Positions 12,616-62,519 of a DNA stretch of 64,000 nucleotides are shown in pieces (positions within the stretch are counted from its first letter, which is position 1; each line of letters opens with the position of its first letter). Origin of the DNA: Eledone cirrhosa (Eukaryota); assembly GCA_964016885.1 (NCBI GenBank), contig OZ024763.1, forward strand, positions 25,172,001-25,236,000, read 5' to 3'. The translations under genes and the position numbers were made by a program. A model generated the notes under the pieces. It was not told the origin of the DNA and searched no databases. It saw only the letters and a program-made list of their open reading frames with translations.

Positions 12616-12680
12616 TATTTCATTATACATATTTCAAGGACATCAAGTTAAATTATGGTGTGCTTTCATCAGACAAAATA
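12616..12680 (-). ncRNA. Type I hammerhead ribozyme (family D)
   Basis: Inverted copy of 12901-12965. Confidence 0.7.
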
Positions 12681-23705: not shown

Positions 23706-26700
23706 TATTTAGATTCTTAGTTAGAAGTAAGGATAGGGACATATTAAGCTGTCCAGAAATGCTCACGGTTGGCTATACAGATCACAAATTAGTGACCTGC
23801 GTAGTCAATCTCGAGAAAACACATAGACAGGGTCCCGGTTACTGGAAACTTAATTTGTCTTTACCGGCAAAAGAGGCTTACAGAAACCGGATTAGCAGAT
23901 TAGTTAAGGAGAGGTTGACGGGTGCAATCGTCAACAACCGATGGTGGGCATCTCTCAAAAGAGAGATTAGAACAGAATCAATAAGTTATAGCAAGATGTT
24001 AGCTGCCGATAGGAATAGGAACGAGAAAGAATTAACAGGTAAATTAGAAGAGGCAATCAAGAGCGAAGATGTGGCCAGAGTGCTGGCATCGAGGACGGCC
24101 TTGAGCCAGTTTTTCGATGCAAAGCACGAAGGCTGCGTCATTCGAAGTAAAATACGTGCTCTAGGTAATGAAGGGGCCAAAGCCGTTGGCTGGGCCCGCG
24201 TGACAGAAGCTAAGAGTGGAAATCGATCCACCATCCGGTCTTTGCAAGACGAGGATGGACGGGTGATCCAGGAGCCTAAGCAGATGTGCGAGGCCTTTCA
24301 AAGGCACTTTGCCCGATTGTTCGGGGGAGGCGAGGGTCCGGGCGGGGACGTGGATTTCGGTCCATACCTCGACGGCCTGCCGCGTCTCTCGAGCGAAGAG
24401 GCAGAGTCCAATGCGAGGGACCAATCTCGGCTGGTGAGATCGGGGATGCACTGAGCCAATGCAGCAGACGCAAATCTCCAGGTCTCGATGGTATACCTTA
24501 CGAACTTTATTTAGCAATGCCGGTCTTCTTCTCCGAACTCCTCGAAGCAGTCTACTGCAATTGGCAGCAGAACGGGAGAATTCCTTGTTCTGTAGCCAAA
24601 GGCGTAGTCTCGCTGGTGAGGAAGGACGAGAACAAGGGGGATAGTATAAATAATTTTCGGCCCATAACCCTGCTAAACACAGAGTTAAAGATTTTGGCCA
24701 AGGTGTTAGCAAAGAGGTTGGCGCTTGTCGTGGGTGGCCTGGTGGGAGATGCGCAGACATGTGCTATCCCATCCAGGTCCATTCACGATAACCTCCACCT
24801 CATGCGATACATCATAGAGAGGGTTGGCAACAAACCCGGCTTCGGTGGGGCCCTGATCAACTTGGATCAGTCTAAGGCGTTCGATAGGGCCGACCATGGT
24901 TACCTGGATGCGGTGCTAGCGGCGGCTGGGTTCGGTCCTGTTTTCAGAGGCTGGATCACTGCCTTACATAGCAACCACATCTGTTCTAGGATCAAGGTGA
25001 ACGGCTACCTTTCGAAGCCGTTCGAAATCATACGATCCATTCGACAGGGGTGCCTTCTCTCCTCCCTTCTGTACGTATTGACTCTCGAGCCTTTACTGAG
25101 GAAGTTGGAGTTGTTGCAGGGTATCCCCCTGGAACCAGGATTGAGCAAAGCGGTGTCGGCCTGCGCCGATGACGTAACAGTAATGGTATCGATCGACTCG
25201 GAGATCGAGGCGATCGGTACCTTACTGGAGGAATACGAAAGGTTGTCAGGAGCGAAACTAAACCGTGAAAAATCCATCGGGCTGCAACTGGGAACGTGGA
25301 GAGGCAGACCGATGCCTCCCGACGGTGTCGTCGGACACTGGACGGAGGGCCCGGTGAAGTTGCTTGGGGTCTGGTTTGGACCGGACCTCCAGGTGGAAAA
25401 GAACTGGGGCGAGGTTACGAACAAGGTGTTTGCACTAACCCAGAAATGGGCCAAGTGTAAGCTGTCCCTAAAAGGTCGGGTGGAGGTGGCGAACATTTAC
25501 ATAGCGTCCGTCACTTACTACCGCCTGACTGTCGTGCCTTGCCCTAAGGAAACACTTACCACCATGGAACGCATGCTCTTTCAATTTCTTTGGAAGAAGC
25601 GCCCTCCTATGGTGAGAAGATCCATCTGCTGCCAACAACCTTCGAAAGGAGGGCTGGGGATGCCGTGGTTGATGATGCGTAGGCACGCATTAAGGCTACG
25701 GCACCTACAGGTATTCCTCACTGGTCAACCGGTGTGGGCTCCGTTCGTGAGACGAGCCTTTCCGAGACTCGTCTCGCTCACCGAGCTGCAATCCTGGGTC
25801 AAGCAAAGATCCGGAAAACTGGGCGACTGGCACACTGAATGTGCCCAGGCGCTCAGGGCTCTCTGGCAAGCGGACCCGGCGATCGGTGGAGAATCCACCT
25901 CGTCATTCTATAGAGGGCTGGTGGCTAGCAGGGGCGATGACACCCTTGGAGAGTCGCTGGACATGGAAGAGGACGAACTGGCCAGCCTGTTCGGTAGGAC
26001 TTTCGGCTCGGGACCAATGGACAACTTCCAGAAGTCACTGGCCTGGCAGTGCTACCGGGGGGCTCTACCCGTTCGAGAAAAGCTCTACAGACACGGGCGC
26101 CCGGGCAGGGATCCCTCGAAAAAGATTTGCCCTAGATGCGTGCGTCACGAAGAAACCGTTGCGCACGCATTGGTGCAATGTCCGGGCGTGGCTGATCTGT
26201 GGGGCTACGCCCAACAACTGCTGTCGCGGGTGGCGCCGATTCGATTGACCGCCGAGTCCGTGATGACAATCAAGCCGCCTCCCCTCTTCACAAAGGAAGC
26301 AAAGGCGATTTTTCTGTGCGTAATAGCCATGTTGAAAGAGGTTGTTTGGTGGACACGATTGAAAGGTCTGAGGTCAGGCAACTTCCTCTCTGGCCATAGT
26401 CTGGTCTACTTCTTCCGATATCACTTCGGAAGAAGGATAAGAATGGAGAGAGAGGTGCTTGGCCACAGGCAGTTTTATTAAAGGTGGGTGATAGTGGCGA
26501 GAATGGCTCGTGTAAATGGGCCTTCTCTGTATACCATCCTGTAGGTAAAGAAGTGAAGGAGAGGGAGCACCTCCTCCATGTGCTCCCCGGGCAAAGGATT
26601 GCACACTTTTTCGGGGGTGTGTGCAACCCCCATCACGTCCCCTCCCTTTTGAGGTTGTTTTCGATTATTTTCATTTTATACCCTTTTTACTCGATTTTAT

Positions 26701-31957: not shown

Positions 31958-32169
31958 GTTTATATGTATATATATATATACATGTTTATATGTATATATA
32001 TATATATATACATGTTTATATGTATATATATATGTATATATACATGTTTATATGTATATATATATGTATATATACATCTATATATATATGTATATATACA
32101 AGTATATATGTATGTATATATATATATATGTTTTTTATATATATGTATATGTATATATTTATGTATATA

Positions 32170-32803
32170 TAAAAACAAATAACGAAACGAGATTAAATTT
32201 CGTTTCGTTTGTAACTCACTTTTGTATGACTGACGCTTAAACAATTAAGTTAAAAATGTACATCCACATATGTATACTGAAATACTAGTATGCATATGAA
32301 TACACACACGTATACATATGTAGATGTACCAAGTTTTTCACTGGTCACTTTACTGTGAGTGTCCAGCCATTCTGTATGTAAACACAGACAAACCGGTTTT
32401 TAGAGTCATACTGGTTTTTGAGGAAACACCTTTCCTCTATTCTCCAGAAAGCCAGACAAGGAATATTGAACTAGTTTCGTTGTTGTTACAACTCATCAGC
32501 AATATTTACCTATCTCCCGGCCTTTCTGGAGAATTGTAAAAGCACATATCGTTATATGCTTTTTCTATGAAAATTAGTAGTGGGCAGACTAATTTGCATA
32601 GAGTGTGAGTACGTACCGGTTCAACGGAGACGATAAAAACAAATAACGAAACGAGATTAAATTTCGTTTCGTTTGTAACTCACTTTTGTATGACTGACGC
32701 TTAAACAATCGTCTCCGTTGAACCGGTACGTACTCACACTCTATGCAAATTAGTCTGCCCACTACTAATTTTACATATGTGGATGTACATTTTTAACTTA
32801 ATT
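32170..32803. mobile_element. Copy of the 467-bp hammerhead repeat (family B): one unit, partial direct repeat, short inversions; a further fragment lies at 36911-36975
   Basis: High identity to 59358-59824; 32636-32710 repeats the unit start; 32709-32803 inverted. Confidence 0.85.
32462..32506 (-). ncRNA. Type I hammerhead ribozyme (family B)
   Basis: AAUAUUG CUGAUGA GUUGU-AACA-ACAAC GAAACUAGUU CAAUAUU. Confidence 0.82.
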
Positions 32804-36910: not shown

Positions 36911-36973
36911 GTCAGTCATACAAAAGTGAGTTACAAACGAAACGAAATTTAATTTCGTTTCGTTATTTGTTTT

Positions 36974-37026
<53 letters not shown>

Positions 37027-37335: not shown

Positions 37336-37380
37336 AGTCATAGTTCTTTCGTCACACACTCTGTGACCTCTTCAGTGACT
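37336..37380 (-). ncRNA. Minimal type I hammerhead ribozyme (family F)
   Basis: AGUCA CUGAAGA G GUCACA-GAGUG-UGUGAC GAAAG AA CUA UGACU. Confidence 0.72.
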
Positions 37381-51917: not shown

Positions 51918-51970
<53 letters not shown>

Positions 51971-52098
51971 TATATGAATATAGACATAGAATATTCGAAA
52001 ATATTCTGTATGTTTATAATAAACATTTTGAAGACCTAATCGCTATAGAATAGAATACGTCACGTATTACAATTAGATTCTCGATAAAAGCAAGGGAA

Positions 52099-52141
52099 GT
52101 AATCTACGCGTTTCATTCTCGTTAGAAATCATCAGGACTAC
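52099..52141 (-). ncRNA. Type I hammerhead ribozyme (family A, inverted copy)
   Basis: Reverse complement of the array hammerhead. Confidence 0.8.
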
Positions 52142-52345
52142 ATATTCAAAATGTTTATTATAAACATACAGAATATTTTCGAATATTCTATGTCTATATT
52201 CACATATATATCGCTATTTCAGAGCATTTATTCCAATTTCTAATTTCTGCCGGACCGGCAACCGCTCTTTCAAACCAGTTCCTGTACACAGCTAAGTATT
52301 CTATAAGTCTCTAGCTGTGTCATTCTCGATAAAAGCACTGGATAT

Positions 52346-52388
52346 GTAGTCCTGATGATTTCTAACGAGAATGAAACGCGTAGATTAC
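52346..52388 (+). ncRNA. Type I hammerhead ribozyme (family A); 14 copies at 52346+310n, the last at 56376
   Basis: GUAGUC CUGAUGA U UUCU-AACG-AGAA U GAAAC GC GUA GAUUAC; stem I extended by a 16-bp helix attctcgataaaagca/tgcttttatcgagaat. Confidence 0.88.
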
Positions 52389-55300
52389 TTCCCTTGCTTT
52401 TATCGAGAATCTAATTGTAATACGTGACGTATTCTATTCTATAGCGATTAGGTCTTCAAAATGTTTATTATAAACATACAGAATATTTTCGAATATTCTA
52501 TGTCTATATTCACATATATATCGCTATTTCAGAGCATTTATTCCAATTTCTAATTTCTGCCGGACCGGCAACCGCTCTTTCAAACCAGTTCCTGTACACA
52601 GCTAAGTATTCTATAAGTCTCTAGCTGTGTCATTCTCGATAAAAGCACTGGATATGTAGTCCTGATGATTTCTAACGAGAATGAAACGCGTAGATTACTT
52701 CCCTTGCTTTTATCGAGAATCTAATTGTAATACGTGACGTATTCTATTCTATAGCGATTAGGTCTTCAAAATGTTTATTATAAACATACAGAATATTTTC
52801 GAATATTCTATGTCTATATTCACATATATATCGCTATTTCAGAGCATTTATTCCAATTTCTAATTTCTGCCGGACCGGCAACCGCTCTTTCAAACCAGTT
52901 CCTGTACACAGCTAAGTATTCTATAAGTCTCTAGCTGTGTCATTCTCGATAAAAGCACTGGATATGTAGTCCTGATGATTTCTAACGAGAATGAAACGCG
53001 TAGATTACTTCCCTTGCTTTTATCGAGAATCTAATTGTAATACGTGACGTATTCTATTCTATAGCGATTAGGTCTTCAAAATGTTTATTATAAACATACA
53101 GAATATTTTCGAATATTCTATGTCTATATTCACATATATATCGCTATTTCAGAGCATTTATTCCAATTTCTAATTTCTGCCGGACCGGCAACCGCTCTTT
53201 CAAACCAGTTCCTGTACACAGCTAAGTATTCTATAAGTCTCTAGCTGTGTCATTCTCGATAAAAGCACTGGATATGTAGTCCTGATGATTTCTAACGAGA
53301 ATGAAACGCGTAGATTACTTCCCTTGCTTTTATCGAGAATCTAATTGTAATACGTGACGTATTCTATTCTATAGCGATTAGGTCTTCAAAATGTTTATTA
53401 TAAACATACAGAATATTTTCGAATATTCTATGTCTATATTCACATATATATCGCTATTTCAGAGCATTTATTCCAATTTCTAATTTCTGCCGGACCGGCA
53501 ACCGCTCTTTCAAACCAGTTCCTGTACACAGCTAAGTATTCTATAAGTCTCTAGCTGTGTCATTCTCGATAAAAGCACTGGATATGTAGTCCTGATGATT
53601 TCTAACGAGAATGAAACGCGTAGATTACTTCCCTTGCTTTTATCGAGAATCTAATTGTAATACGTGACGTATTCTATTCTATAGCGATTAGGTCTTCAAA
53701 ATGTTTATTATAAACATACAGAATATTTTCGAATATTCTATGTCTATATTCACATATATATCGCTATTTCAGAGCATTTATTCCAATTTCTAATTTCTGC
53801 CGGACCGGCAACCGCTCTTTCAAACCAGTTCCTGTACACAGCTAAGTATTCTATAAGTCTCTAGCTGTGTCATTCTCGATAAAAGCACTGGATATGTAGT
53901 CCTGATGATTTCTAACGAGAATGAAACGCGTAGATTACTTCCCTTGCTTTTATCGAGAATCTAATTGTAATACGTGACGTATTCTATTCTATAGCGATTA
54001 GGTCTTCAAAATGTTTATTATAAACATACAGAATATTTTCGAATATTCTATGTCTATATTCACATATATATCGCTATTTCAGAGCATTTATTCCAATTTC
54101 TAATTTCTGCCGGACCGGCAACCGCTCTTTCAAACCAGTTCCTGTACACAGCTAAGTATTCTATAAGTCTCTAGCTGTGTCATTCTCGATAAAAGCACTG
54201 GATATGTAGTCCTGATGATTTCTAACGAGAATGAAACGCGTAGATTACTTCCCTTGCTTTTATCGAGAATCTAATTGTAATACGTGACGTATTCTATTCT
54301 ATAGCGATTAGGTCTTCAAAATGTTTATTATAAACATACAGAATATTTTCGAATATTCTATGTCTATATTCACATATATATCGCTATTTCAGAGCATTTA
54401 TTCCAATTTCTAATTTCTGCCGGACCGGCAACCGCTCTTTCAAACCAGTTCCTGTACACAGCTAAGTATTCTATAAGTCTCTAGCTGTGTCATTCTCGAT
54501 AAAAGCACTGGATATGTAGTCCTGATGATTTCTAACGAGAATGAAACGCGTAGATTACTTCCCTTGCTTTTATCGAGAATCTAATTGTAATACGTGACGT
54601 ATTCTATTCTATAGCGATTAGGTCTTCAAAATGTTTATTATAAACATACAGAATATTTTCGAATATTCTATGTCTATATTCACATATATATCGCTATTTC
54701 AGAGCATTTATTCCAATTTCTAATTTCTGCCGGACCGGCAACCGCTCTTTCAAACCAGTTCCTGTACACAGCTAAGTATTCTATAAGTCTCTAGCTGTGT
54801 CATTCTCGATAAAAGCACTGGATATGTAGTCCTGATGATTTCTAACGAGAATGAAACGCGTAGATTACTTCCCTTGCTTTTATCGAGAATCTAATTGTAA
54901 TACGTGACGTATTCTATTCTATAGCGATTAGGTCTTCAAAATGTTTATTATAAACATACAGAATATTTTCGAATATTCTATGTCTATATTCACATATATA
55001 TCGCTATTTCAGAGCATTTATTCCAATTTCTAATTTCTGCCGGACCGGCAACCGCTCTTTCAAACCAGTTCCTGTACACAGCTAAGTATTCTATAAGTCT
55101 CTAGCTGTGTCATTCTCGATAAAAGCACTGGATATGTAGTCCTGATGATTTCTAACGAGAATGAAACGCGTAGATTACTTCCCTTGCTTTTATCGAGAAT
55201 CTAATTGTAATACGTGACGTATTCTATTCTATAGCGATTAGGTCTTCAAAATGTTTATTATAAACATACAGAATATTTTCGAATATTCTATGTCTATATT

Positions 55301-56669
55301 CACATATATATCGCTATTTCAGAGCATTTATTCCAATTTCTAATTTCTGCCGGACCGGCAACCGCTCTTTCAAACCAGTTCCTGTACACAGCTAAGTATT
55401 CTATAAGTCTCTAGCTGTGTCATTCTCGATAAAAGCACTGGATATGTAGTCCTGATGATTTCTAACGAGAATGAAACGCGTAGATTACTTCCCTTGCTTT
55501 TATCGAGAATCTAATTGTAATACGTGACGTATTCTATTCTATAGCGATTAGGTCTTCAAAATGTTTATTATAAACATACAGAATATTTTCGAATATTCTA
55601 TGTCTATATTCACATATATATCGCTATTTCAGAGCATTTATTCCAATTTCTAATTTCTGCCGGACCGGCAACCGCTCTTTCAAACCAGTTCCTGTACACA
55701 GCTAAGTATTCTATAAGTCTCTAGCTGTGTCATTCTCGATAAAAGCACTGGATATGTAGTCCTGATGATTTCTAACGAGAATGAAACGCGTAGATTACTT
55801 CCCTTGCTTTTATCGAGAATCTAATTGTAATACGTGACGTATTCTATTCTATAGCGATTAGGTCTTCAAAATGTTTATTATAAACATACAGAATATTTTC
55901 GAATATTCTATGTCTATATTCACATATATATCGCTATTTCAGAGCATTTATTCCAATTTCTAATTTCTGCCGGACCGGCAACCGCTCTTTCAAACCAGTT
56001 CCTGTACACAGCTAAGTATTCTATAAGTCTCTAGCTGTGTCATTCTCGATAAAAGCACTGGATATGTAGTCCTGATGATTTCTAACGAGAATGAAACGCG
56101 TAGATTACTTCCCTTGCTTTTATCGAGAATCTAATTGTAATACGTGACGTATTCTATTCTATAGCGATTAGGTCTTCAAAATGTTTATTATAAACATACA
56201 GAATATTTTCGAATATTCTATGTCTATATTCACATATATATCGCTATTTCAGAGCATTTATTCCAATTTCTAATTTCTGCCGGACCGGCAACCGCTCTTT
56301 CAAACCAGTTCCTGTACACAGCTAAGTATTCTATAAGTCTCTAGCTGTGTCATTCTCGATAAAAGCACTGGATATGTAGTCCTGATGATTTCTAACGAGA
56401 ATGAAACGCGTAGATTACTTCCCTTGCTTTTATCGAGAATCTAATTGTAATACGTGACGTATTCTATTCTATAGCGATTAGGTCTTCAAAATGTTTATTA
56501 TAAACATACAGAATATTTTCGAATATTCTATGTCTATATTCACATATATATCGCTATTTCAGAGCATTTATTCCAATTTCTAATATATATATATATATTA
56601 TATATATATATATATTATATATATATATGTATATATATATATATACATATATATATATACATATATAGT

Positions 56670-59167: not shown

Positions 59168-59218
<51 letters not shown>

Positions 59219-59247
59219 ATCTATATATATATATATATGTATGTATA

Positions 59248-59284
<37 letters not shown>

Positions 59285-59311
59285 CTATATATATATATAT
59301 ATATATGTATA

Positions 59312-59363
<52 letters not shown>

Positions 59364-59652
59364 CAAATAACGAAACGAAATTAAACTTCGTTTCGTTTGT
59401 AACTCACTTTTGTATGACTGACGCTTAAACAATTAAGTTAAAGATGTACATCCATATATGTATACTGAAATACTAGTATGTATATGAATACACACACGTA
59501 TACATATGTAGATGTACCAAGTTTTTTCACTGGTCACTTTACTGTGAGTGGCCAGCTATTCTGTATGTAAACACACAGACAAACCGGTTTTTAGAGTCAT
59601 ACTGGTTTTTGAGGAAACACCTTTCCTCTATTCTCCAGAAAGCCAGACAAGG

Positions 59653-59697
59653 AATATTGAACTAGTTTCGTTGTTGTTACAACTCATCAGCAATATT
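59653..59697 (-). ncRNA. Type I hammerhead ribozyme (family B)
   Basis: Reverse complement of 60218-60262. Confidence 0.82.
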
Positions 59698-60217
59698 TAC
59701 CTATCTTCCGGCCTCTCTAGAGAATCGTAAAAGCACATATCGTTATATGCTTTTTCTATGAAAATTAGTAGTGGGCAGACTAATTTGCATAGAGTGTGAG
59801 TAAGTACCGGTTCAACGGAGACGATAAAAACAAATAACGAAACGAAATTAAACTTCGTTTCGTTTGTAACTCACTTTTGTATGACTGACGCTTAAACAAT
59901 TAAGTTAAAGATGTACATCCATATATGTATACTGAAATACATATGTATACGTGTGTGTATTCATATACATACTAGTATTTCAGTATACATATATGGATGT
60001 ACATCTTTAACTTAATTGTTTAAGCGTCAGTCATACAAAAGTGAGTTACAAACGAAACGAAGTTTAATTTCGTTTCGTTATTTGTTTTTATCGTCTCCGT
60101 TGAACCGGTACTTACTCACACTCTATGCAAATTAGTCTGCCCACTACTAATTTTCATAGAAAAAGCATATAACGATATGTGCTTTTACGATTCTCTAGAG
60201 AGGCCGGAAGATAGGTA

Positions 60218-60262
60218 AATATTGCTGATGAGTTGTAACAACAACGAAACTAGTTCAATATT
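60218..60262 (+). ncRNA. Type I hammerhead ribozyme (family B)
   Basis: 7-bp stem I AAUAUUG/CAAUAUU, CUGAUGA, 5-bp stem II, GAAAC UA GUU. Confidence 0.84.
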
Positions 60263-60684
60263 CCTTGTCTGGCTTTCTGGAGAATAGAGGAAAGGTGTTT
60301 CCTCAAAAACCAGTATGACTCTAAAAACCGGTTTGTCTGTGTGTTTACATACAGAATAGCTGGCCACTCACAGTAAAGTGACCAGTGAAAAAACTTGGTA
60401 CATCTACATATGTATACGTGTGTGTATTCATATACATACTAGTATTTCAGTATACATATATGGATGTACATCTTTAACTTAATTGTTTAAGCGTCAGTCA
60501 TACAAAAGTGAGTTACAAACGAAACGAAGTTTAATTTCGTTTCGTTATTTGTTTTTATCGTCTCCGTTGAACCGGTACTTACTCACACTCTATGCAAATT
60601 AGTCTGCCCACTACTAATTTTCATAGAAAAAGCATATAACGATATGTGCTTTTACGATTCTCTAGAGAGGCCGGAAGATAGGTA

Positions 60685-60729
60685 AATATTGCTGATGAGT
60701 TGTAACAACAACGAAACTAGTTCAATATT
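60685..60729 (+). ncRNA. Type I hammerhead ribozyme (family B)
   Basis: Identical to 60218-60262, one period downstream. Confidence 0.84.
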
Positions 60730-60945
60730 CCTTGTCTGGCTTTCTGGAGAATAGAGGAAAGGTGTTTCCTCAAAAACCAGTATGACTCTAAAAACCGGTT
60801 TGTCTGTGTGTTTACATACAGAATAGCTGGCCACTCACAGTAAAGTGACCAGTGAAAAAACTTGGTACATCTACATATGTATACGTGTGTGTATTCATAT
60901 ACATACTAGTATTTCAGTATACATATATGGATGTACATCTTTAAC

Positions 60946-61001
<56 letters not shown>

Positions 61002-61162
61002 ATATATATATATATTTATCTATTTATTTATCTTAGCAATTTTAATTTTCTAGTACATTGTATGGTTTTCAAAATATATATATAATGGGATTGTTTTAAG
61101 GGATGTTTTACAGATTTTTCTCCCCTTTTTCTCTTTTCTTTTTTAGACATATTTTTATAGTA

Positions 61163-61194
<32 letters not shown>

Positions 61195-61224
61195 AGATCA
61201 AAAGATGGTTAAAGGAGTTCCATG

Positions 61225-61295
61225 TATTTTATTATGCGCATTTCAAAAACAAACATCATCATGCAATAATATTTGTGTTTTCATCAGATAAAACA
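61225..61295 (-). ncRNA. Type I hammerhead ribozyme (family E)
   Basis: Same fold as 45635-45705 with pairing-preserving substitutions in stem II. Confidence 0.78.
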
Positions 61296-62519
61296 GGAGG
61301 ACATGATATGAAGGCTAAAAAACACTTGTGGATAGTGCAGTTTTAAATCAACATATGAAAAGTAATTTTAGATTGATGTGTGATATTGGGAAAATATTAT
61401 TGCATGATGATGTTTGTTTTTGAAATGCGCATAATAAAATACATGGAACTCCTTTAACCATCTTTTGATCTTATATATTATGTATACTCCAGTCCTACAA
61501 ACTGTAGAGTGCTTCTTATCCGATATCTGCATTGCTTTATTGTACTACAATAAAACTCACCTCCTACATTATATATATATATATTACTATAATATGGAAG
61601 AATATGGAAGGCTAGAAGAAATTAGTCGAAAACAAAAATGTTATACATACATACACACACACGCGTATATATATATATATATATTAGAATTTAACGTAGA
61701 TTCTTAGTTGTTCTGAGATTTTTATAGTTGTTGTTGTTATTGTTAATTTAACAAGCGTCTTGTTATTGTTATTGTTGTCTTAAACAGGACTGTTGTTCTC
61801 GATTTAAACAACAGTGTTGTTGTTTTTAACAAGGGTGTTGTTGATGTTTTAAACACGGCGTTGTTGTTGTTTGCTGTTGTTGTCTTAACAAGAATGCTTT
61901 ATCGCTCGTTTTTTTTTTTCTTTTTAATTTTTTTTTCACAAGTCTATTGTTGCTCTGGTTGTTGTTGCTGTTGTTTTAACTTTAATAGTTTTGATATTGT
62001 TGTTGTTTTAACAACTCTGCTGTTGTTGTTGTTATTGTTGGTGTAGGTGGTGGTGATAGTGCTGGTGGTGATATATGTGCAGGTGGTTGTAGTGGTGGTG
62101 GTGGTGATAGTGCTGGTGGTAGTGGTGGTGATGGAGTTGGTGGAGGAGGCGGTGATAGTGCTGCTGCTGGTGGTGGTGGTGGTGGTGGTGGTAGTGTTTT
62201 TCAAACAGAAATTCGCTTCCTTTGGACTTTGTCTTTGATAAATCTCCAAAAACTCACAAGAAACAATTCTTCACACTTCTAAAACTTCTAAAATATCCTT
62301 ATCAAATATGGCGACCAAGAGAGAGAAGAAAAAATGCACTTCTTTATAATTGCTGTGTTCTTGCTGTTGTTGTTGTTCTTGGTGTTTTTGTTGCTGTTGT
62401 TGTTGTTGCTGTTCTTGTTGTTGTTGTTGGTGGTGGTGTTGTTGTTTCTTCACCATTGGATTCCTCCAGAAATATCCGGAAACAACAAACATTTAAAATG
62501 GCTTCTCACTATTTTTGAT

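Follow-up and report, generated by a model that had tools for sequence, protein, structure and literature searches.

A young noncoding hammerhead repeat in (TA)n: head-to-head arms, two fixed outer ends, and a probable Penelope-type mode of insertion

How does a noncoding repeat come to lie in a (TA)n tract as two multimeric arms that face each other head to head, and on what template was it copied? The question is raised by a locus at positions 59357-60951 of the window, i.e., the whole 64-kb stretch of Eledone cirrhosa DNA analyzed here, and it touches on two matters that are described as unsettled in the accessible text of the relevant literature. The origin of tandem and inverted insertions of Penelope-like elements (PLEs) is called undefined (PMC8557442), and mobilization of animal retrozymes via RNA circles has been proposed rather than demonstrated (PMC7229834; 10.64898/2026.07.22.740005). 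A family of ~1,500 near-identical short insertions turns both questions into counts, namely, of an end rule shared with a coding element and of single-template haplotypes that extend across arms.

Architecture of the locus

The locus contains 1.25 forward and 2.17 reversed copies of a 467-bp unit, U (59359-59825; 35% GC), and identity is 100% across all units (Table 1). This agrees with the initial annotation, which had described 467-bp units in tandem and inverted arrangement, more than two of them reversed, with a flip at a TAC junction. A foldback of ~1.1 kb had also been recorded; the foldback itself is present, but its size was underestimated, as it spans 59357-60558 (~1.2 kb), with a 584-bp stem and a loop of ~34 nt. 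As the hammerhead lies on the minus strand of the forward arm and on the plus strand of the reversed arm, the arms are head to head in the RNA sense, with their 3′ ends pointing outward. No ATG-initiated open reading frame (ORF) of more than 30 amino acids was found on either strand of the predicted monomer. The circular monomer has a predicted folding energy of -151 kcal/mol, compared with -95 ± 5 for 40 rough shuffles. A slightly diverged, dispersed copy with a partial tandem and an inversion of its own, likewise reported earlier, was recovered near 32 kb, where a second jump occurs within the reversed arm.

Table 1. Features of the repeat family in the 64-kb window
Feature	Position	Strand	Description
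Left-flank (TA)n	59170-59356		Target tract
Arm 1	59357-59940	-	1.25 units, 584 bp; RNA sense right to left; outer 3′ end is site A at 59357, adjoining (TA)n
Tail between sites A and B	59357-59431	-	~70 nt; includes a hairpin of 12 bp (59369-59397); corresponds to the Penelope tail as described in the accessible text of PMC11167929 and PMC8557442
Type I hammerhead, copy 1	59653-59697	-	Predicted cut after GUU, between 59660 and 59659
TAC microhomology	59938-59940		Head-to-head junction; 3-nt overlap of both arms
Arm 2	59938-60951	+	2.17 units, 1,014 bp; RNA sense left to right; outer 3′ end is site B at 60951, adjoining (TA)n
Type I hammerhead, copy 2	60218-60262	+	GUU at 60253-60255; 2-bp palindromic stem III; outer helix on stem I, ~60189-60287
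Predicted 467-nt monomer	60256-60722	+	Between two predicted cuts
Type I hammerhead, copy 3	60685-60729	+	Predicted cut after 60722
Right-flank (TA)n	60952-61015		Target tract
Second family insertion	32169-32803		96.8% identity; arm with site A, 32169-32709; followed by two pieces in reverse orientation (32708-32772 and 32772-32803) that reach site B
Hammerhead of the 32-kb copy	32462-32506	-	
Tail-only family fragment	36912-36974	+	Ends at site A within (TA)n

Hammerhead ribozyme

The ribozyme motif of U consists of a 7-bp stem I, a CUGAUGA core, a 4-bp stem II, GAAA, a 2-bp palindromic stem III, and the triplet GUU, a triplet that would be cleaved more slowly than GUC or GUA. Both the 7-bp stem I and the GUU triplet had been noted initially and are present. 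The best Rfam match of U by E-value was HH9 (E = 5.8e-8), whose 37.7 bits lie below the gathering score of 52, and a scan of the whole window at gathering scores returned no match. The long outer helix that had been proposed as an extension of stem I is recovered when the RNA sense is folded (-39.6 kcal/mol; z = -4.9).

Across 25 aligned motifs (18 distinct) from three sister families, 14 of the 22 named pairs were changed on both sides around an invariant core, a covariation that represents a few independent events because the motifs are related. Paired cells amounted to 87% in the motif alignment and to 31 to 50% in slid controls. One sister family has units of ~465 to 510 bp and the triplet GUA. 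In another, the units measure ~430 bp and are ~63 to 65% identical to U across the whole unit; the pattern used for its retrieval gave 1,705 matches, and most of the 100 listed belonged to it. The octamer ATGCAAAT (window 60127-60134, plus strand), which lies ~80 nt upstream of the ribozyme, is retained in each of the three families and may be a promoter element or merely part of a conserved stem.

Genome-wide distribution and outer ends

The exact hammerhead core occurs 5,256 times in the genome, compared with 0 occurrences of a reversed-pattern control. Extrapolation from the first 100 core matches listed, which form 28 clusters over 56 Mb, gives ~1,500 loci. The initial annotation had called the unit mobile and proposed a genome-wide search for it; the number of exact cores and the dispersed loci, many of them multimeric, bear out its mobility.

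Outer ends were sought in 65 loci, comprising 36 picked by identity, the two window copies, and 27 other clusters of the 56-Mb stretch. Site A was defined as unit position 466 to 3 and site B, ~70 nt away, as about 67 to 76. Both ends could be assigned in 48 loci: 47 were A+B, one (L065) was A+A, and none was B+B, an excess of A+B over a coin toss with a P value of 3e-13. The remaining 17 had a call for A only (11 loci), for B only (4 loci), or for neither (2 loci). A held-out set of 14 further loci was chosen by the A end, so that B+B cannot show there. Eleven of these ended at B, one stopped ~8 nt short of B, two were one-armed, and none was A+A; thus, 11 to 12 of the 12 two-armed held-out loci fit A+B. 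All two-armed loci examined for orientation were head to head. By eye, (TA)n was present on both outer flanks in 46 of the 48 two-ended loci (the exceptions being L140 and L144), and contigs of sequencing run X1 show TA joined at both site A and site B. The core count, the two-armed loci, and the A+B ends uphold the earlier description of the repeat as retrozyme-like, mobile, and Penelope-type in layout. It is the pair of fixed outer ends, rather than the flip itself, that is the informative feature.

The inner junctions are scattered and differ from locus to locus. Extra bases were carried by 19 of the 55 junctions scored, and microhomology of at least 2 nt was found in 23 of 36 clean junctions, compared with 18% expected. 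Overlaps scored as 8, 12, and 17 nt are inflated by local palindromes; the window locus, for instance, scored 12, its true value being 3. Arrays reach ~24 units, and long arms occur in pairs (7+13, 8+7, and 11+13 units). A one-armed array (L151:1985-5245) comprises almost exactly seven whole units with TA on both sides and a private 1-nt deletion common to the units. Words of the unit were also detected in sequencing runs X4 to X20, labeled with 16 other organisms or sources; the low unit depth in runs X4 and X5 may reflect cross-contamination by a high-copy repeat, and their contigs were excluded from the analysis. No RNA run was among those listed as containing the unit's words.

Relationship to Penelope-like elements

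The genome holds many elements with reverse transcriptase (RT) and GIY-YIG domains. One young Neptune-type coding family (L164 to L186) encodes an RT, a C-terminal GIY-YIG domain, and a CxxC linker of Neptune/Nematis type, with 97 to 99% amino acid identity among most scored copies. The family terminates in (TA)n at two sites separated by 64 nt, and 7 of the 23 loci examined were two-armed, six of them A+B and one (L180) B+B, the latter copy likely being a duplicate of its neighbor. Its 3′ region contains only a degenerate hammerhead-like motif.

No sequence in common with U was found in this coding family, to which L087 belongs. Likewise, no coding element sharing sequence or a terminus with U was detected among 94 coding-element loci, the searches having scored a small share of candidates (150 of 10,596, 49 of 50,784, and 40 of 1,525). 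Neither a nucleotide profile built from 57 distinct units nor tblastn of 7 PLE proteins against 136 loci revealed a terminus shared with RT/GIY-YIG elements. The initial annotation had regarded direct plus inverted duplications as the hallmark of PLE pseudo-long terminal repeats (pLTRs) and had suggested looking for a copy abutting an RT/GIY-YIG ORF. The Penelope-type layout stands; the assignment to a pLTR of a coding element does not, as the repeat is nonautonomous, no examined copy forms the terminal repeat of an RT/GIY-YIG ORF, and among the 94 loci none has a copy abutting such an ORF as its terminus. What the repeat shares with nonautonomous PLEs is the tandem and inverted, 5′-truncated layout, the tail at one end, and the (TA)n target; of the marks of an autonomous EN+ PLE, neither an RT/GIY-YIG ORF in the unit nor a copy serving as the terminus of a coding element was found.

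As a potential partner, a PLE fragment in L111 was rejected because it has no terminus in common with the repeat; this single case, where a short TA run lies at the joint, was not counted. At L111:880-1198, a truncated RT/GIY-YIG element lies head to head with a retrozyme arm, with only the short TA run between them, an arrangement that is explained by a chimeric or by a nested insertion. A window ORF at 24280-26481 (plus strand; 733 amino acids) was also dismissed as a partner, as it encodes a LINE-like RT with a zf-RVT domain unrelated to the repeat.

Comparison with known systems

The element class itself is already known, and the comparisons made here refer to the accessible portions of the works cited. 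Animal non-LTR retrozymes were defined by Cervera and de la Pena (2020; PMC7229834), who showed circles and RtcB ligation and proposed that tandem cDNA arises from a primed circle. The present repeat resembles them in its noncoding tandem unit, its low GC content (35%), its single type I hammerhead per unit, its highly self-paired monomer, its thousands of copies, and the presence of PLEs in the same genome. However, those retrozymes are described as tandem arrays, whereas the arms found here are head to head with two fixed ends. The unit of 467 nt is slightly above the 150- to 450-bp range given in PMC7229834, and expression and circles were shown for the retrozymes of that study, whereas the repeat described here is characterized from genomic DNA. 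A 2026 preprint (Li, Clavereau and Pollet; 10.64898/2026.07.22.740005) ties retrozymes to PLE pLTRs by sequence, a link not found for the present repeat, and favors local amplification; one of nine Xenopus retrozyme dimers cleaved in vitro in that study. The accessible text of an octopus repeat annotation (PMC13282606) does not mention ribozymes. The literature searched, with subscription papers and supplements outside it, contains no description of two-armed, fixed-end retrozyme insertions or of ADAR-edited genomic retrozyme copies.

PLEs are described as forming partial tandems with an inverted truncated copy, a tail of 30 to 40 bp often at one end only, and a bias toward (TA)n (Craig et al. 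2021; PMC8557442). In vitro, Penelope RT begins synthesis at two internal sites flanking the tail, doing so on both cut strands, and a dimer is predicted (Frangieh et al. 2024; PMC11167929); the ribozyme of an anole PLE was dispensable for insertion in vitro (PMC11167929). Partial tandems, the inverted 5′-truncated copy, a tail often confined to one end, and (TA)n are all features that the repeat shares with EN+ PLEs of the Neptune/Nematis type, as are a hammerhead located upstream of the tail and a stem-loop bounded on either side by an internal start site of the RT (PMC8557442; PMC11167929). In contrast to those elements, the repeat has no ORF, its tail measures ~70 nt rather than 30 to 40, both arms can be long multimers, and the one-sidedness of the tail is near-absolute (47 of 48). 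Nonautonomous Chlamys elements such as MRC1 (PMC8557442) are also noncoding PLE derivatives with pLTRs and multicopy head-to-tail insertions, but their 3′ end resembles that of autonomous partners, and their clade lacks canonical hammerheads.

A plant-type LTR retrozyme was rejected, as the ribozyme is of type I rather than type III, the units are multimeric, and there is no LTR pair. Twin priming of L1 likewise produces head-to-head inversions joined by microhomology. In L1, however, the second priming site is variable and the first is the poly(A) tail, whereas the present repeat lacks poly(A) and has two fixed sites.

Private variants and ADAR-type changes

An intact cleavage site is traversed by 108 of 133 arms. 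Inner ends lay within 10 nt of the cut in 5 of 110 cases, compared with 4.7 expected, and no part of the unit was avoided. As the arms cross the cut and the inner ends are evenly spread, the template would have been a circle, an uncleaved multimer, or monomers between which the RT jumped. Stopping of the RT at the ribozyme cut was rejected, since inner ends are not enriched there.

In 74 loci, 25 private substitutions, i.e., substitutions absent from the 73 other loci of about 1,500, were fixed in all covering copies. No fewer than 23 of these were present on both arms, in 12 loci and in up to 23 copies. The set omits the hyperedited L051 and three loci with edge artifacts, and L271 gave no alignment at the filter. 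Read in the RNA sense, A>G accounted for 10 of the 25 fixed private changes and for 6 of 108 singletons (P = 4e-5); among the fixed private changes, A>G outnumbered its mirror, T>C, by only 10 to 4 (P = 0.11). L138 carries three identical private A>G changes in 19 to 20 copies. The same changes in every unit of both arms are expected from one edited monomer that was copied repeatedly; alternatively, fixed private changes could have been supplied by an unsampled source locus.

Some long arrays probably grew after insertion. L149 has variants with a period of two units, fitting a two-unit duplication after insertion, and the periodic patterns in L036, L046, L049, L065, and L153 could have arisen in the same way. 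As duplication after insertion accounts for L149 and perhaps for these loci, array length is no proof of rolling-circle copying. In L153, a variant recurring with a period of three is confined to a single arm, a pattern that fits copying from more than one template.

In L051 (G000:C3, 245.519 Mb), all 43 changes within 322 nt were A>G in the sense orientation and affected 42% of adenines. Of the adenines preceded by U or A, 42 of 68 were edited; the corresponding figures were 1 of 19 for a preceding C and 0 of 15 for a preceding G (P = 1e-4), and this neighbor bias is the preference of ADAR. Between the end of the run and the predicted cut lie 7 nt, and 0 changes occur in the next 698 nt. A second, short run in L271 has 7 A>G changes within 30 nt of the tail; A>G runs were present in 2 of 79 loci. 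Two genome-wide hyperediting patterns matched only L051 (one match each), with 0 matches for the opposite-strand control. As both patterns missed L271 by a 1-nt gap, the count of edited copies is a floor. Strand-specific A>G changes in ADAR context imply that the ribozyme strand passed through an RNA stage and that long double-stranded RNA was formed, which read-through of a fold-back would yield. The initial annotation had anticipated A-to-I editing from the foldback, and it is indeed visible as A>G runs fixed in the genomic copies L051 and L271. Such frozen marks mean that RNA editing enters inherited DNA and seeds family variants. As far as can be judged from the genomic copies, private variants across every unit of both arms, together with the ADAR-type runs, point to a single RNA template.

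L051 also contains ~600 bp of foreign sequence between its arms (L051:3176-3775), with a 68-bp direct repeat at its ends. This segment has a permuted 92% match in L193 and no hammerhead pattern inside, and it possibly arose when the RT switched to a different circular or tandem RNA as its template.

Proposed mechanism of insertion

The explanation that we favor, and that we consider probable, is that the locus is a young noncoding hammerhead repeat, an animal non-LTR retrozyme, lying in (TA)n as head-to-head arms with two fixed outer ends and likely inserted by a borrowed Penelope-like RT/endonuclease for which a single RNA, probably circular, served as template for priming at either side of the cut. 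This explanation builds on what is read from the sequence: a unit whose ribozyme fold is accompanied by covariation, arms arranged head to head, outer ends that follow the A+B rule, inner junctions that are placed at random and bear short stretches of microhomology, locus-private variants found in both arms, and A>G changes of ADAR type on the ribozyme strand. Transcripts would self-cleave after GUU into 467-nt monomers, which a host ligase would close. A Penelope-like enzyme, perhaps dimeric, would then cut (TA)n; of the two DNA ends, one would prime at site A, which lies on the 3′ side of the tail hairpin, and its counterpart at site B, ~70 nt farther 5′. Each RT would copy a variable length while going round the template, and microhomology would join the far ends of both cDNAs. 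Later, unequal exchange may have lengthened some arrays. Penelope-type two-ended priming is, in our estimation, very likely, and the full single-circle model is moderately probable. Against the favored explanation stand the lack of a sequence-sharing coding partner among the 94 loci, the A+A ends of L065 and the B+B ends of L180, and the 17 of 65 loci in which one or both end calls are missing. The periodic variants of L149 and similar loci, the one-arm variant of L153, the small excess of A>G over T>C among fixed private changes, the cleavage of a single Xenopus dimer out of nine, and the dispensability of the anole ribozyme in vitro also speak against it.

Two-ended Penelope-type priming might instead have acted on uncleaved linear multimeric transcripts of existing arrays, with the ribozyme and the circles as bystanders, which we regard as unlikely. 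A GUU triplet with a 2-bp stem III may be cut slowly, arms crossing the cleavage site fit such a template equally well, periodic haplotypes could come from a copied source array, and the anole PLE is reported in the accessible text to use uncleaved RNA in vitro (PMC11167929). However, independent editing of the units of a long transcript would not be expected to leave identical private A>G changes throughout both arms, as are seen in L138, and the edited run of L051 stops 7 nt from the cut, with the following 698 nt unchanged. Cleaved linear monomers, one per enzyme subunit, could also have been primed at both ends, the RT jumping end to end at the cut to generate multimers. The switch between unedited and edited sequence in L051 maps to the cut site (one case, ~4% by chance), the arms of L153 differ from each other, and the dimer predicted for PLEs would suit this arrangement (PMC11167929). 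Nevertheless, inner ends are no more frequent at the cut than expected (5 of 110), joints across the cut are exact, and private variants are common to both arms in 12 loci, and we judge such a template improbable.

How the arms became multimeric could be explained differently if short two-armed Penelope-type insertions were mainly expanded afterward by minisatellite-like unequal crossing-over. A duplication of two units subsequent to insertion would account for L149, local amplification is favored in the 2026 preprint (10.64898/2026.07.22.740005), and fast expansion could also give homogeneous arrays. Yet expansion can start only in an arm of more than one unit, and in many loci, among them 59357-60951, both arms are already of that kind, with insertion-level identity; moreover, long arrays in both arms (7+13, 8+7, and 11+13) show almost no internal variation. 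Expansion as the main source of the multimers therefore seems doubtful at best. A DNA-level fold-back element, or an assembly artifact from palindromic reads, is hardly credible. No contig of runs X1 to X3 or X13 bridges the junction of 59357-60951, but such a gap is uninformative. The junction differs from locus to locus, with the outer ends being the same two, both ends lie against TA also in contigs of an independent sequencing run, and strand-specific ADAR-context changes need an RNA step.

Returning to two-ended priming on one RNA circle, the insertions name two priming sites and a target that are directly testable in vitro with a 467-nt RNA. We also propose, tentatively and with less confidence than for the favored explanation, that Penelope-type integration is obligatorily asymmetric. 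A dimeric RT/endonuclease would load one RNA circle via the tail hairpin and make one cDNA per hairpin side from both cut ends, rolling on both. Retrozyme arrays would then directly record, in the genome, rolling-circle reverse transcription of single RNAs, including their ADAR edits, and edited and unedited RNAs could be joined at the ribozyme cut.

Other hammerhead-like families in the window

A hammerhead-like pattern matched 37 times in the window, compared with 0.65 expected, and the matches include at least five recurring families, several of which are present as inverted pairs. They span 11523-61287, with examples at 12632, 12909, 18150, 29218, 30009, 31288, and 31596 and further matches at 37347, 45085, 45651, 56675, 59044, and 61241. 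A separate 310-bp hammerhead family, alike in build, occupies 51966-56584 within (TA)n, where a short inverted arm (51966-52148) lies head to head with ~14.3 identical units. Directly to the right of the 59357-60951 locus, a short-repeat inverted pair with a hammerhead-like motif is located at 61196-61483.
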